Shown one piece after another: positions 5,915 through 17,218 of a DNA stretch of 64,000 nt. The translations under genes were made by a program, and so were the position numbers. The stretch lies in NCBI RefSeq assembly GCF_013315695.1, contig NZ_CP054353.1, one strand, 5' to 3'. The notes under the pieces are model-generated. The model saw nothing but the letters and a program-made list of their open reading frames with translations. It did not search any database and was not told the DNA's origin. Origin of the DNA: Escherichia coli. Lineage in GTDB: Bacteria > Pseudomonadota > Gammaproteobacteria > Enterobacterales > Enterobacteriaceae. How positions within the stretch are numbered: position 1 is the stretch's first letter; each line of letters starts with the position of its first letter.

Positions 5915-6436
5915 AATTACTGAATCAGAAAACACCGGAAACCAAGATGCCAACGAAATACAGAACAGGCGACTATCCCGAAAATACAGCCGCTATCGGT
6001 CGCCATGAACGATAAATGAACTGGCGCAATATAATTGACAGATACTGGATTATCTGGACGGTGGAACTGGTTGATTCCTCCAGCACAGCGCCAGTCATTG
6101 ATTGATGGCAATGGCCTCCGGCAGTCTGGCCAGATGAAACATCCGGCGCGGGACTGTAAACTGTTGCCGTCACCGAAACAATGTAATCCAGCGCAGCGTT
6201 AAGTTGGTTGACGCTGGTGACGGCAACAGATACCGTCCGGCCGGATGTCATCAGTTGAACTGCCTGAGGCGCAGGCCATTTGCATCAATCTGGTGACTGG
6301 GAGGAATCAACCAGTTCAGTGCGTCCAGATAATCCAGCCACAAATTACCCATTTTCGCCAGTTCCCATTTATCAGACGACGTTAGCGGCTTTACCGGGTG
6401 GTTGTATTTTCATGATATTCGCCTGGCTTGATTTAA

Positions 6437-6625
6437 TTAGTAGCTCTGTCTTTCTGATTCAGTTATAGACGATTTCACTTCGATGGTGGGTGGATGATTT
6501 TTAAATCCACAGAACGGCAAATTCATAACCAGCCTTACGGATTTTGAGCGTTGTGGCAGGTTCTGGAATAAACTCACTGCAAGATATTTTTGATGCAGAA
6601 ATATATTCCCGCGTCTCACCATCAT
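6437..6625 (-). pseudogene. Second tfa-like copy in opposite orientation, frameshifted
   Basis: 30-bp perfect inverted repeat with 5753-5782; conserved peptide ...YDGETREYISAS... lies in a different frame from the track ORF here. Confidence 0.3.
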
Positions 6626-6676
6626 AGTTATAGACGGTCAATATATCCACGCCTTCGTGGTAATGCCTTGCGCTAT

Positions 6677-7129
6677 TTAAACACGGCGTCGTTCATTAAT
6701 GCAGCCCTGACGATAAGTTAAACCAACAGCCCACGGGTTGTAATTCGCCGATACCGATGTCGCTGGTGAATGACGTTCGGTGATGGGATCAGAATTAAAG
6801 CCGGTTAACCCCCTGGGCCTTCGTGCAGTCATCACGAATTGTCGCCCAGCGCCCATTCCTCTTTGAGCCATCACCCAGAATGAGTACAGGATGACGGTGC
6901 TTTTCCAGCATTTTGGGGAAAGGGATGCTAAAAACACGTCCTCATTGTTACCGCGATAATGTCGGCGTAACCGCGAATAACGACCGCATAAATCAGGTAA
7001 TTTATTTGTTGGATAATTGCCAGTTCCATCCATCAAAATGCCGCACCGTTGCAAAAGCCAGCCTGTCCGGTATCTGAAGGCCATGGAACAGTCACACCAT
7101 CCCGTTTTGCAGAGCTTCTCCCAAACCAA
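6677..7129 (-). other. 150-codon open frame reading inward from right crossover site; status uncertain
   Basis: Long stop-free frame, +1 relative to the H continuation frame; W/R/C-rich translation. Confidence 0.2.
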
Positions 7130-7141
7130 CGTTTATGAAAA
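7116..7141. repeat. Right crossover site of invertible segment
   Basis: ttctcccaaacc-aa-cgtttatgaaaa; inverted relative to left site (core TT versus AA). Confidence 0.6.
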
Positions 7142-7196
7142 TGCAGAGATAATGGCTAACTGGCATCATCCCCGGTTTTTATTCAGGGGGATGATC

Positions 7197-7763
7197 ATGC
7201 TTATTGGCTATGTACGCGTGTCAACAAATGACCAGAACACCGATTTGCAACGTAATGCACTGAACTGCGCGGGATGTGAGCGGATTTTTGAGGATAAAAT
7301 CAGTGGCACTAAGTCCGACAGACCAGGGTTGAAAAAACTGCTCAGGACACTATCGGCAGGAGACACGCTGGTTGTCTGGAAGCTGGACAGGTTGGGGCGC
7401 AGTATGCGGCATCTTGTTACGCTGATAGAAGAGTTGCGTCAGCGAGGCGTGAATTTCCGAAGCCTGACTGACAGTATTGATACCAGCACCCCAATGGGCC
7501 GTTTCTTTTTTCATGTCATGGGTGCCCTGGCTGAAATGGAACGCGAACTGATAGTTGAACGTACCAGGGCAGGGCTGGCTGCAGCTCGTGCCAAAGGCAG
7601 AGTAGGTGGACGCCGTCCTAAGTTGACCACCGAACAGTGGGCACAGATTGGGCGTTTACTCGAGGCCGGAGAATCAAGACAGCGTATTGCACTGATTTTT
7701 GATGTAGGCGTTTCTACCATTTATAGAAAATTTCCGGCAAATAAGAGCAATGAATCTCCCTGA
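7197..7763 (+). CDS. pin: Serine DNA invertase, Pin/Gin/Cin/Hin family
   Basis: MLIGYVRVSTNDQNTDLQRNAL... with catalytic Ser in VRVST and C-terminal HTH; track ORF 7017-7763 over-extends upstream. Confidence 0.9.
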   Translation: MLIGYVRVSTNDQNTDLQRNALNCAGCERIFEDKISGTKSDRPGLKKLLRTLSAGDTLVVWKLDRLGRSMRHLVTLIEELRQRGVNFRSLTDSIDTSTPMGRFFFHVMGALAEMERELIVERTRAGLAAARAKGRVGGRRPKLTTEQWAQIGRLLEAGESRQRIALIFDVGVSTIYRKFPANKSNESP

Positions 7764-13645: not shown

Positions 13646-14742
13646 ATTTCAGCGCTGAACTGCTTAACACAGGCAACAAAACTCCCGCATTCAGCATCAG
13701 TATTGAGGGCAGGGATATCACCACTGTGCTGGATAACCGCCTGATGAGTTTGACGCTGACGGATAACCGGGGCTTTGAAGCGGACCAGCTTGATCTGGAG
13801 CTGGATGACGCTGACGGAAAAATCGTGCTGCCGCGCCGTGGTGCGGTCATTACGCTGGCGCTGGGCTGGAAGGGGCAGCCGCTTTTCCCTAAAGGGGCAT
13901 TCACAGTGGACGAGATTGAACACACTGGCGCACCGGACCGCCTGACTATCCGGGCGCGAAGTGCTGATTTTCGGGAAACGCTGAATACCCGCCGTGAAAA
14001 ATCGTGGCATAAGACCACCGTCGGGGAAGTGGTGAAGGAAATAGCCGCGCGGCACAAGCTGAAGATGGCACTGGGTAAAGACCTGTCGGATAAGCCCGTG
14101 GAGCATATAGACCAGACTAATGAGAGTGACGGCAGTTTTCTGATGCGGCTGGCGCGACAGTACGGTGCCATCGCGTCGGTGAAAAATGGCAATCTGTTAT
14201 TCATCCGGCAGGGGCAGTGCAAAAGCGCCACTGGTAAACCTCTGCCAGTGATCACTATCACACGCAAGGACGGTGACAGTCACCGATTTATCCTGGCAGA
14301 TCGCGGAGCCTACACGGGCGTAATTGCCAGCTGGTTGCATACCCGCGAACCTGCGAAGAAAGAAAGCACCACGGTGAAGCGTAAGCGCAGAACTAAGAAG
14401 CAGAAGAAAGAGCCAGAAGCGAAGCAGGGCGATTACCTGGTGGGTACGGATGAAAACGTGCTGGTACTTAATCGCACTTATGCCAACCGGAGCAACGCCG
14501 AACGAGCGGCGAAAATGCAGTGGGAACGCCTGCAACGCGGCGTTGCGTCATTTTCTCTACAACTGGCAGAAGGGCGGGCAGATCTCTACACGGAAATGCC
14601 TGTGAAGGTCAGTGGTTTTAAACAGCCGATAGATGATGCGGAATGGACCATTACGACTCTGACACATACCGTCAGCCCGGATAACGGTTTTACAACCAGT
14701 ATTGAACTTGAAGTGAAAATTAATGATCTTGAAATGGAATAA
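13642..14742 (+). CDS. D: Tail/baseplate hub protein D
   Basis: 366 aa; GTG start overlapping U stop; position matches P2 gpD. Confidence 0.75.
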   Translation: MNFSAELLNTGNKTPAFSISIEGRDITTVLDNRLMSLTLTDNRGFEADQLDLELDDADGKIVLPRRGAVITLALGWKGQPLFPKGAFTVDEIEHTGAPDRLTIRARSADFRETLNTRREKSWHKTTVGEVVKEIAARHKLKMALGKDLSDKPVEHIDQTNESDGSFLMRLARQYGAIASVKNGNLLFIRQGQCKSATGKPLPVITITRKDGDSHRFILADRGAYTGVIASWLHTREPAKKESTTVKRKRRTKKQKKEPEAKQGDYLVGTDENVLVLNRTYANRSNAERAAKMQWERLQRGVASFSLQLAEGRADLYTEMPVKVSGFKQPIDDAEWTITTLTHTVSPDNGFTTSIELEVKINDLEME

Positions 14743-14810
14743 ATGGTTCTCAATATTGATATTTTGTGTATCATTGCATTGATTATGATAGCAAAGGTAG
14801 GGATCTGGAT

Positions 14811-15029
14811 ATGATGAATTGTCCAAAGTGTGGTCATGCGGCGCACACAAGGAGCAGTTTTCAAGTAACGGAAAGCACCAAAGAACGTTACTGCCAGTGC
14901 CAAAATATTAACTGCGGGAGCACTTTTGTTACCCATGAAACAGTGGTCCGGTTTATTGTGACACCTGCAGTGATTGCCACAGCCCCTCCACATCCATTGC
15001 CAGATGGTCAGGGCCATATGAATTTTTAA
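14811..15029 (+). CDS. ogr: Ogr zinc-finger late-gene transcriptional activator
   Basis: MMNCPKCGHAAH...CQCQNINCGSTF with four-Cys zinc finger; about 72 aa from ATG at 14811. Confidence 0.85.
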   Translation: MMNCPKCGHAAHTRSSFQVTESTKERYCQCQNINCGSTFVTHETVVRFIVTPAVIATAPPHPLPDGQGHMNF

Positions 15030-15036
15030 GAAAGAG

Positions 15037-15064
15037 AACCTGCTACGGCAGGTTTTATTTTTCT
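15037..15064 (+). terminator. Rho-independent terminator after ogr
   Basis: aacctgctacggcaggtt hairpin followed by T-rich run. Confidence 0.6.
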
Positions 15065-15269
15065 GTAAGCCTATCCATTTAAAGTATAAATGAATATTTA
15101 CATTGATGATTATCATTAGAGTTGCGTTAAAGACTACACCTGCCATTTGTACAATGTTTTAAAGTAATGGCTGCAATTAAATGCAGCCATTATTTATAAT
15201 GATTAATATATATAAAATATCAGACACTGAATAATAACGTACTTTATGTTCAAGGGTCGATATAATCAC

Positions 15270-16346
15270 TTAATAGAATGTTTCTACTAAAGCGTTTACA
15301 TGTTCTCTAGCCTCGCGATAACGCTCTCTTACAACGTTGATAATTTCACCGTTTGGCATTTCATAATGAGTTTGAGCAGGAAGTTTGAAAAGAGGAATTC
15401 CCAAACTTGCAGAAACTTTCCCTGAAGTATGAAAATCTTTAACTTCAGAAAGATAGGCCGCCTCCCATTCATTTAAGTTATTGATTTCACGATATCGCTC
15501 CGTGAATAGTTCTGGGAAGTTCTGATATTGTGTAAAAGCAAAAGCACAAAGGGATTCTTTGATTGAATCATAAGCTCTGGCAACACCAAGATTAGACGTA
15601 AAGTTATTGAAAACAAAGCGATCTAACTTAGGTAATGTAAGATTATTATTCACAACTTGGCTATGAAAAGTGACAAACTTTTCTGCATAGGTTTGTGCAG
15701 CAGAAGAGGGATAATGGCCATAAAGAAGCATCATTATTCCTTTCATCCCTTCTAATGAACTGTAATCAGCCATCATAGGGACGACCAGTCTATCTGAAGA
15801 TAGTAGAGCCATTTGGGTGTAGATAGAAAAACTTGGATTACAGTCAATAAAGACAACCATATCATCGTAATCATCAATATCATGTTCTAGAGTACATAGT
15901 CGACGAAATGCTGTCATATACTCTTTCCATGCGAACCTGTTAGCTGGACTGATAACTGCATAGTTCAGTGCAAGAGTAAGGGACTCGAGGAATGAATCAC
16001 CGGCGATGAGAAACAAATTATCGCTGATTTCATCATTATATTGGTTTACTGCTACTTTGAAAGAACGTCGAATACTGGTGAAATTTGAATGGCCATCTAA
16101 AAGCCAGTCCAGAAACCCTACGACATTTTTGCGTGTTCGTGAAGATTGTAGCTCTTGATTAGTATTGTACCCACGATCACCTCCTCCAAGCAGGTATTGA
16201 GAAATGTTTGCTTGCGGACACAAATCTATTACTAGTACCTGTGTGCTGGGATTTTCTTCTGCATACTGTGCAGCAATGTTGAAACCAAGTGTTGTTTTTC
16301 CAACACCGCCTTTGTTGTTATACATTGCATAAATCTTAACTGCCAT
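15270..16346 (-). CDS. Orphan ParA/MinD-like P-loop ATPase with uncharacterised C-terminal extension; prophage cargo gene of unknown function
   Basis: 358 aa; deviant Walker A KGGVGKTT at residues 12-19, A' motif VLVIDLCPQAN, Walker B-like MVVFIDCNPS; AT-rich; opposite strand to phage late genes; no ParB-like neighbour. Confidence 0.75.
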   Translation of the reverse strand: MAVKIYAMYNNKGGVGKTTLGFNIAAQYAEENPSTQVLVIDLCPQANISQYLLGGGDRGYNTNQELQSSRTRKNVVGFLDWLLDGHSNFTSIRRSFKVAVNQYNDEISDNLFLIAGDSFLESLTLALNYAVISPANRFAWKEYMTAFRRLCTLEHDIDDYDDMVVFIDCNPSFSIYTQMALLSSDRLVVPMMADYSSLEGMKGIMMLLYGHYPSSAAQTYAEKFVTFHSQVVNNNLTLPKLDRFVFNNFTSNLGVARAYDSIKESLCAFAFTQYQNFPELFTERYREINNLNEWEAAYLSEVKDFHTSGKVSASLGIPLFKLPAQTHYEMPNGEIINVVRERYREAREHVNALVETFY

Positions 16347-16641
16347 GTGTATTTCACCCGAGGTTGAATAAAAGCCTACTACATCGCTATTTTACCATTC
16401 AATTTTATCATTAGCAGATTCCAATGAAGAAGATACTTCTGGTTTATCTAATGAAAATTGTGAAGTAAAAGTAGGATACTTCATTCTTCTGCAGTGAGGG
16501 GGGCGTGGATAACATTATAATTTCTTGTTGTATAGCCTTTTCGGGAAAGAGCAGACAAGATTTACATAAAACTCTGTCGCCATTTTGCCGCCACTTCCAA
16601 AGAAAAAGGGGCTACGCTTTCACGTAACCCCTTGATTTATT

Positions 16642-17004
16642 TGGTGGAGCTGGCGGGAGTTGAACCCGCGTCCGAAATTCCTACATCCTCGGTACTACAT
16701 GCTTAGTCAGTCTTTACATTCGCTTGCCAGCTGCGGACGGACACGCCACTAACAAACTAGCCTGATTAAGTTTTAACGCTTCAACCCCAGGCAGGGCTTC
16801 CACGCGATCTCTTTTGGGTTTGACCTCTCTTGATCCCCGTCCTAAGAGCGGAGGCTAGGGAGAGAGGGCTCTAAGCAGGTTATTAAGCTGCTAAAGCGTA
16901 GTTTTCGTCGTTTGCGACTATTTTTTGCGGCTTTTTACGAGGCCAACCGCCCCTCGGCATGCACCTTGGGTTTCGCAAATCCCGTCGAATCCAGAATCAG
17001 CCCC
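16642..17004 (-). ncRNA. ssrA: tmRNA (SsrA)
   Basis: Reverse complement reads GGGGCTGATTCTGGATTCGACGGG...GGACGCGGGTTCAACTCCCGCCAGCTCCACCA; tag-coding region present. Confidence 0.95.
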
Positions 17005-17218
17005 AATGTGTAACGGTAAGTATACCAGATTCATGAGTGCCATGACCAGCCTCAATGGCGTTATCGTTAAAGATTTAGCACCCATGTAGCCTGATTTTTA
17101 TTCGATTAAGCAATGGGATGGCAACATTTGTGTCGGATGTGATAGCCAATAAGATGTGCATTCGCGCCGCCGGAGAGGGAGGCGCGGTGAGGAACTGGTC
17201 AATAATTGCAGTGCAGGT

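Follow-up and report, generated by a model that had tools for sequence, protein, structure and literature searches.

The ParA/MinD-fold ATPase gene in the ogr-attL slot of a P2-like Escherichia coli prophage as candidate single-gene phage defence factor related to GiPD474

The 64,000-nucleotide (nt) stretch of the Escherichia coli contig NZ_CP054353.1 analysed in this study (the window) harbours a P2/186-like prophage which is integrated at ssrA and which carries, between its late activator gene ogr and the ssrA junction, one gene for a ParA/MinD-fold ATPase of 358 amino acids (aa; 15270-16346 including the stop codon, minus strand, open reading frame (ORF) with ATG start). This gene represents self-contained, horizontally mobile prophage cargo that probably encodes a one-gene anti-phage factor and would be expressed from the prophage. 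The defence function is suggested by the fold of the predicted protein, its occurrence as solitary, constrained and mobile cargo, the behaviour of its cassette and its homology to the prophage-encoded ATPase GiPD474.

Homology to GiPD474 and architecture of the protein

GiPD474 (STM474_RS13505) of the Salmonella prophages Gifsy-1(4/74)/Gifsy-3(14028s) has been described as a single-gene phage-defence ATPase which combines an AAA_31/ParA-MinD-Soj fold, including the motif GGVGKT at residues 29-34, with an "unknown domain" (Bosma, Noireaux & Bowden, Appl Environ Microbiol 2025, PMC12724215). Upon deletion of the gene plating of phage Felix O1 (FO1) was regained, and in E. coli K-12 carrying the gene on a low-copy plasmid the plating of T4 was reduced by approximately 5 logs and that of Alf5 by approximately 5.5 logs, without any effect on T7, SP6, LPST153, Jbel, VpaE1 and S16 (PMC12724215).

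The presumptive GiPD474 cluster, P0288, was recognised by its length, motif position, taxa and gene neighbourhood and not by accession: the protein has a length of 361 aa, carries GGVGKT at residues 29-34 and has members in S. Typhimurium and E. coli, and in the E. coli relative P0391 (93% identical to P0288) the gene follows a cII-like gene, a cro-like gene and cI. According to BLASTP the window protein shares 32% identity with P0288 over aa 6-327 (E 3e-46), while the profiles of the two families were aligned by hhalign over 340 columns (probability 100%, E 8.2e-51). Since the profiles align end to end, the whole architecture including the extra elements is common to both families, and the homology to GiPD474, as represented by P0288, extends over the full length. 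The statement in the original prediction that the gene could not be matched with a named system is outdated, GiPD474 being the nearest named relative.

Both proteins are encoded by a single, horizontally spread prophage gene with a product of about 360 aa and without conserved partner, and both combine the AAA_31/ParA-MinD-Soj fold and its extra elements with the Walker A motif NNKGGVGKT, the switch I motif DxCPQ and the Walker B motif FIDCNPSF. In contrast to GiPD474, the window protein lacks an N-terminal extension of about 16 residues, and its gene is located in the ogr-attL slot of a P2/186-like prophage instead of the lambdoid immunity region beside cII-cro-cI. Furthermore, its subfamily reaches cyanobacteria, Burkholderia, Vibrio and Xanthomonadales, whereas GiPD474 has been described within the Enterobacteriaceae only.

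As originally claimed, the minus-strand ORF of 358 codons encodes the three nucleotide-binding motifs of the ParA/MinD group. The deviant Walker A motif K12-GGVGKTT-19 (16290-16313, minus strand), as read from the sequence, includes the signature lysine K12 and the P-loop lysine K17, which are both kept in 56 of the 57 rows of alignment A1. It is followed by the switch I region or A' box V37-LVIDLCPQAN-47 (16206-16238, minus strand; Cys43 codon at 16218-16220) and the Walker B motif M163-VVFIDCNPS-172 (15831-15860, minus strand) with the invariant D168. Across the aligned relatives Lys12, Lys17, Asp41 and Asp168 show no or almost no variation. The Walker A motif with its signature lysine and the three-dimensional fold both place the protein in the ParA/MinD superfamily of deviant Walker A ATPases (SIMIBI). 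Its switch I deviates from the "DxDPQ" of this superfamily, the second Asp of which is needed to hydrolyse ATP (Soj D44, HpSoj D41, McdA D38), in that D41 is present and the second position is occupied by Cys43, a departure that bears on catalysis and leaves the fold membership untouched. The protein is acidic (pI 5.25), and no obvious C-terminal membrane-targeting helix was noticed, without a dedicated analysis having been made.

The DNA is also found, at 100% identity, in E. coli 1002W03, where RefSeq annotates the identical ORF as "ParA family protein" (WP_113870597.1). Specific names were not obtained from the other databases: the sole match in PADLOC was at the P-loop level (PDC-M28B, E 0.02), all NCBIfam matches were far under the cutoffs, and the viral fold library BFVD provided nothing useful (top match with a template modelling (TM) score of 0.45).

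A separate C-terminal domain of about 150 residues, as proposed in the original prediction, was not supported by structure prediction. The AlphaFold model (pLDDT, the predicted local distance difference test score, 93.7; predicted TM score, pTM, 0.93) shows a single globular ParA/MinD fold, and Foldseek concurs with the ParA fold, canonical ParA proteins being about 15-21% identical in the structural alignments. The Pfam domain AAA_31 was detected at residues 4-205, with CbiA reaching residue 264, and the PHROG family phrog_164 spans residues 4-344. The Walker B strand starts at about residue 165 in comparison to about 114 in Soj, and about 150 residues remain after the Walker B motif versus about 100 in Soj. 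The protein therefore consists of one ParA fold with about 100 added residues that appear to be spread over several insertions. These are predicted at roughly residues 56-110, 210-235, 277-298 and 318-338, approximate limits which were deduced from the order of secondary structures and the motif positions in Soj and not from a residue-level superposition. The closing strand-helix elements (299-315 and 340-355) appear in the model to be the ordinary C-terminal part of the ParA fold.

The approximately 100 extra residues and the cysteine at the position of Soj D44 distinguish the window protein from the canonical ParA, Soj, McdA and MinD proteins, as does the lack of a partner gene of the ParB, McdB or MinE type and of a centromere. 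DIP2308 of Corynebacterium diphtheriae (PDB 3pg5), an uncharacterised structural-genomics protein of 361 aa, also differs from the window protein in that it retains the aspartate ("DCDPQ").

In the phmmer alignment to Soj of T. thermophilus, Cys43 pairs with residue 44, which is Asp in 1wcv and Ala in 2bek. The cysteine was found in 116 of 120 proteins of the window family, in 117 of 119 proteins of the GiPD474 family and in 55 of the 57 rows of alignment A1, as well as in 42 of the 48 proteins of full length found among the 60 nearest cluster representatives. Hence, "DxCPQ" replaces "DxDPQ" across the extended clade, including the GiPD474 family. The entry 2bek represents the D44A mutant that was used to trap the ATP-bound dimer, and according to the titles of further PDB entries the same Asp-to-Ala substitution was introduced in HpSoj (D41A) and McdA (D38A). 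In Soj-type proteins the loss of this aspartate results in locked ATP dimers. A similar motif, "DACPDN", is present in BcsQ of E. coli. Because Cys43 replaces the aspartate required for Soj-type hydrolysis, the ATP-bound dimer of the window protein is probably long-lived, or its hydrolysis may be slow or depend on a partner, as judged from the Soj-type ATPases. The clade-wide exchange of Asp for Cys provides a direct handle on the mechanism that is open to testing.

The ogr-attL slot and other genomic contexts of the family

The ogr-attL interval is a cargo slot in which cassettes replace each other allelically. Based on blastn comparisons with other ssrA-integrated P2-like prophages the homology ends at 15065 and restarts at 16551/16552, which delimits a variable cassette of 15066-16550 containing the ParA-like gene. 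On the left side it adjoins tail genes, gene D and ogr of the P2/186-like prophage, and on the right side ssrA and smpB. The ogr/Delta-like late activator gene (14811-15029, plus strand; RefSeq annotation transferred from L001 19782-20000 and ORF) is the last conserved phage gene before the slot, whose left edge is formed by a terminator-like bidirectional hairpin after ogr (15035-15056, both strands; terminator scan). The right edge is the conserved att-proximal phage arm (16551-16641, as given by the blastn boundaries), which is followed by the integration target, the tmRNA gene ssrA (16642-17004, minus strand; ARAGORN and annotation). A 90-bp att-proximal segment of about 92% identity was found in 778 of 5426 complete E. 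coli genomes. These results agree with the originally proposed placement of the gene between ogr and ssrA and with its orientation on the strand opposite to the phage late genes. The AT-richness that had been noted for the locus is likewise evident, the GC content of the ParA-like gene amounting to 0.383, whereas the tail genes reach 0.556 and the host flank 0.496.

The expected variation in the occupancy of the slot among P2-like prophages was observed in a survey that comprised nine sampled loci and three cassette counts. A common alternative occupant is a gene of 160 aa (L026 4486-4968; L027 4485-4967; L032-L034 2485-2967) that is annotated as BRCT domain protein or hypothetical protein and has the same orientation as the ParA-like gene. 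It was present in six of the nine sampled loci, and megablast detected it in no fewer than 176 genomes of E. coli. The cassette of 504 bp that contains it has the same boundaries as the ParA cassette (L026, L027), and its product matches the PADLOC candidate PDC-S48 weakly (E 4e-7). The third occupant encodes a retron-type reverse transcriptase (RT) of 257 aa which overlaps an ORF of 57 aa (L028 2414-3329) and was detected in 33 E. coli genomes (PADLOC RT_VI, 2.9e-18). In L028 the boundaries of this cassette are slightly shifted, with the homology being lost at 14941 and back at 16574, and its RT is shorter than the full RT_VI of 319 aa which is encoded beside the ParA-like gene in Kosakonia (L003 9845-10804). 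The ParA cassette itself was found in two of the 5426 complete E. coli genomes, in addition to one copy adjoining ssrA that is truncated by IS3.

In the truncated copy (Eco_23-2667, L002 6808-8564) the ParA-like gene is interrupted by IS3 after about 188 codons. Beyond IS3 a different island with a P-loop NTPase of 1283 aa replaces the P2-like late genes.

With conserved flanks and unrelated, swappable cargo that includes known defence genes, the slot corresponds to a hotspot in the sense of Rousset et al. It resembles the gpA-gpQ (old/tin) hotspot of P2-like phages, which is likewise a variable locus with conserved phage flanks and interchangeable defence cargo (PMC9122126). Nevertheless, the ogr-attL slot is a locus distinct from the gpA-gpQ hotspot of Rousset et al. 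2022, and since the word "ogr" is absent from that publication (PMC9122126) it lies outside their survey. The ogr-attL slot could be mined for cargo as the gpA-gpQ hotspot was, with the 160-aa BRCT-like gene as one candidate.

The gpA-gpQ locus of the present prophage (L030 3610-4629, same genome, outside the window) encodes a TIR-domain protein, a hypothetical protein of 138 aa and two more hypothetical proteins.

Regarding the expression of the ParA-like gene, a consensus promoter scan revealed no minus-strand sigma-70 site within 16347-16606. A candidate extended -10 element, TGGTAAAAT (16389-16397, minus strand), was recognised by eye about 45 nt upstream of the ATG, and a perfect TATAAT without a -35 element is located at 16514-16519 on the minus strand. 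Due to the strong terminator which directly follows ssrA (16606-16633, minus strand; 12-bp stem with six GC pairs, T-run), read-through from ssrA was rejected as source of expression. Between the stop codon of the ParA-like gene and the ogr terminator an imperfect palindrome (I1, 15153-15204) with 26-nt arms, no spacer and 77% complementarity starts about 65 nt past the stop codon; it is not followed by a T-run and possibly represents the transcript end.

The family of the window protein is widely distributed. A search of 5.8 billion proteins yielded 2844 matches, and the best 120 of these 2844 are nearly all 340-376 aa long, are at least 59% identical to the window protein and originate from Enterobacterales, Aeromonas, Vibrio, Pseudomonas, Stenotrophomonas, Burkholderia, Ralstonia and several cyanobacteria. 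Among 1.84 billion representatives of 50%-identity clusters this tight family forms one cluster, and about 60 further clusters of similar length and 30-38% identity were found at E <= 1e-30. Within the 90%-identity cluster the most widely seen member occurs on 246 contigs. The purifying selection on the family is strong: 116 columns are invariant over 18 sequences from distant phyla, and while synonymous sites are saturated between family members, the nonsynonymous divergence (pN) is 0.10-0.28. In every host examined the GC content of the gene is below that of its flanks.

Close members are found in prophages or in the vicinity of defence genes. In Morganella a lambdoid prophage carries the gene in its lysis-terminase slot, in antisense orientation relative to the phage genes, and the genes of P. 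syringae and Stenotrophomonas are located at prophage ends. In Pantoea the gene is part of an integrative mobilisable element and adjoins a gene for DUF4238, a validated single-gene defence domain (Rousset et al., PMC9122126). The member on a 48.7-kb plasmid of Nostoc is flanked by a HaeIII-type restriction-modification pair and a pPIWI-RE Argonaute system, the Kosakonia member is located beside the complete type VI retron RT (RT_VI), and the Vibrio member is found alongside genes for SIR2, a type I restriction subunit, H-NS and pyocin. The members of Aeromonas and Burkholderia belong to small islands bearing a recombinase.

Small serine recombinase genes (Pfam Resolvase) were observed within about 2 kb of the family members of Kosakonia (L003 6965-7516), Aeromonas (L041 5354-5902), Vibrio (L040 4056-4697) and P. 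syringae (L005 5451-6152), which may hint at how the ParA-like gene moves.

More distant full-length relatives (31-34% identity) are encoded directly downstream of cI in the Pseudomonas phage phi297, the Klebsiella phage ST11-VIM1phi8.2 and the Salmonella phage S.Inf 5-2, i.e. in the position of rexAB in lambda; the P22-like phages ST160 and SE1 also carry a ParA-like gene of similar size downstream of cI. Furthermore, full-length homologs of 352 aa and 33% identity represent the largest gene on ColRNAI/Rop plasmids of 3.3-5 kb in Klebsiella, E. coli and Salmonella (L035 1737-2795; L036 893-1951; L037 4791-5849), where they are accompanied by genes for DUF6530 and DUF2251. Further distant homologs were detected on 8.5-kb Acinetobacter OXA-72 plasmids. 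Altogether matches with E<1e-30 were obtained on 151 plasmids, 115 of which are non-mobilisable.

Neither a ParB partner nor a centromere could be assigned to the gene, which confirms its description as an orphan. No ParB is annotated anywhere in the prophage, neither in the late nor in the early region, and no tandem repeats were identified in 14700-17100, where only short, chance-like two-copy repeats occur. An adjacent gene for ParB or another centromere-binding partner and a centromere-like repeat array, as typical for ParABS, are thus lacking. A consistent pairing of homologs with ParB, which would have contradicted the original prediction, was not encountered either, since no ParB-family gene was seen beside any of the family members in about 25 loci or on the small ColRNAI and Acinetobacter plasmids. 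The genes of 111 and 112 aa upstream of the Pantoea and Kosakonia members were considered as partners and rejected because they are mutually unrelated. When the 300 nt on either side of the gene were compared for ten family loci, similarity was seen only between two near-identical Stenotrophomonas loci; hence, only the ORF and not the flanking DNA is conserved between contexts.

Proposed function and alternative explanations

As an anti-phage factor the ParA-like protein would presumably be produced in the lysogen under the control of a promoter within the cassette, insulated from ssrA by the terminator. It may bind ATP and form a sandwich dimer, as is typical for ATPases with a deviant Walker A motif, and in its persistent ATP-bound state this dimer could interfere with the infection after adsorption, speculatively by binding or sequestering a phage component or DNA in an ATP-dependent manner. 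Binding or sequestration is favoured over enzymatic destruction because no nuclease, protease, pore or other effector module is present.

The proposal of a single-gene defence factor has been strengthened by the end-to-end homology to GiPD474 and by the defence-gene and prophage-slot contexts of the family. Several points weigh against it. The phenotype is that of GiPD474, from which defence by the subfamily of the window protein is predicted through homology, and "works like GiPD474" says little about the mechanism. The GiPD474 cluster was identified from published descriptors only and not by comparison of the exact sequence, and the identity of 32% is below the limit of the GiPD474 authors, who define homologs by at least 70% identity and 70% coverage (PMC12724215). 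Moreover, the slots differ (ogr-attL versus downstream of cI), the ParA-like gene is rare in complete E. coli genomes, the consensus scan yielded no promoter, silencing of the AT-rich cassette in E. coli is conceivable, and no PADLOC v2 model matches the protein beyond the P-loop.

A literature search on ParA-like or AAA_31 proteins in prophage defence retrieved only the GiPD474 paper and papers on Gifsy-1. The latter describe RemAIN (STM14_3218-3220) of Gifsy-1 in S. Typhimurium 14028, in which RemA acts with the immunity protein RemI and the HEPN anticodon nuclease RemN, and remA comprises 840 bp (279 aa) in one operon with remI and remN (Sargen & Helaine 2024, cited after PMC13043305 and PMC9879122). 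Similar to the window protein RemA is, in these descriptions, a ParA-like ATPase from a prophage accessory region with an anti-phage role. In a comparison that is limited to such descriptions the window gene differs by its length of 358 aa and its solitary location, and a three-gene arrangement as in RemAIN was not found, since the cassette contains one gene and the nearest others are ogr and ssrA. The size of 279 aa and the operon layout, as far as they are described, argue against an equivalence to RemA.

The ParA-like protein could nevertheless, like RemA, be a sensor or regulator which depends on a partner from another place, either a host protein or the product of another prophage gene. 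ParA/MinD ATPases usually act via partners, the window protein has no effector domain of its own, and RemAIN, as described, is an example of a prophage defence system whose nuclease can be driven by a ParA-like ATPase. Taking into account that no adjacent gene is conserved over about 11 distinct contexts with dissimilar flanks, that size and operon layout of RemA are different as described and that GiPD474 acts alone in a heterologous host (PMC12724215), this explanation seems unlikely. A comparably low probability is assigned to a role in the upkeep of the element, i.e. the positioning, stabilisation or segregation of an excised or replicating element or of a small plasmid on the nucleoid without a ParB of its own, or to an interference with positioning in the host as a form of lysogenic conversion. 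The ParA fold with intact dimerisation motifs would be consistent with such a role, as would the close homolog on the 48.7-kb Nostoc plasmid and the 33%-identical full-length homologs, which are the main cargo of the ColRNAI and the 8.5-kb Acinetobacter plasmids. However, an integrated prophage needs no partition, high-copy ColE1-type plasmids are not known to rely on partition systems, and ParB, centromere repeats and conserved flanking DNA were not found in the loci analysed. Furthermore, the gene is swappable with a retron-type RT and a BRCT-like gene, and its homolog GiPD474 has a defence phenotype.

An action on competing mobile DNA, such as the poisoning of the ParABS systems of plasmids or phage-plasmids via mixed dimers or titration of ParB, might be expected of a ParA homolog that has an altered catalytic residue (C43) and is carried by plasmid-competing elements. 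It appears very unlikely, since GiPD474 restricts T4 and Felix O1-type phages, which are not known to rely on ParABS, and since mixed dimers with canonical ParA are improbable due to the low identity of about 15-21%. The least probable explanation is that the gene hitchhikes in a junk slot and is decaying or without function. This would explain the rarity in complete E. coli genomes, the copy cut by IS3 and the lack of a clear promoter, but is largely refuted by the conservation data, namely the intact frame, the 116 invariant columns in 18 sequences, the low pN and the complete set of catalytic-site motifs, and by the presence of the cluster of the exact protein on more than 246 contigs.

Compared with these explanations the defence function as a one-gene factor is preferred. 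That a lone ParA-like prophage gene serves as defence factor is already published for the relative, whereas the breadth of the clade, the DxCPQ hallmark, the solitary occurrence in prophage slots and defence islands and the ogr-attL cargo hotspot go beyond the literature searched. The window gene is outside the PADLOC v2 families, which include no model for it or for GiPD474, and outside the published definition of GiPD474 homologs, yet it clearly encodes the same kind of protein.

A more far-reaching proposal, which is offered tentatively and in its full extent is rather doubtful, is that the DxCPQ ParA-like proteins constitute a single, very large class of immune factors which crosses phyla and in which one protein acts without enzymatic effector. 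Their ATP sandwich dimer, by nature impaired in hydrolysis, would capture a phage component or phage DNA or bring it to the wrong place, and ogr-attL would be a further, previously uncatalogued defence hotspot of P2/186-like prophages. This class would comprise the window family, the GiPD474 family, the phi297 and S.Inf 5-2 relatives and the homologs on the tiny ColE1-type plasmids; the ST160/SE1 protein is placed near it by slot and size only. Effector-free dimer trapping would then be a defence principle without representative among the known systems. If the window gene acts in defence at all, a single gene of 1.1 kb ranging from enterobacteria to cyanobacteria would be added to the anti-phage repertoire, and GiPD474 would be the tip of a much larger clade.

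Further features of the prophage

The genome also revealed a second integrase gene directly after the prophage integrase gene, followed by a gene for an ATP-binding protein of 661 aa and the polarity-suppression gene psu (L030 15275-19001, same genome, outside the window). This region looks like a tandem P4-like satellite with its own hotspot cargo.

Within the late operon of the prophage, minus-strand genes for tail-fibre assembly and a gp53-like protein are located beside a gene annotated as "recombinase family protein" (6337-7763 of the window), an arrangement that resembles a Cin/Gin-type invertible tail-fibre segment.

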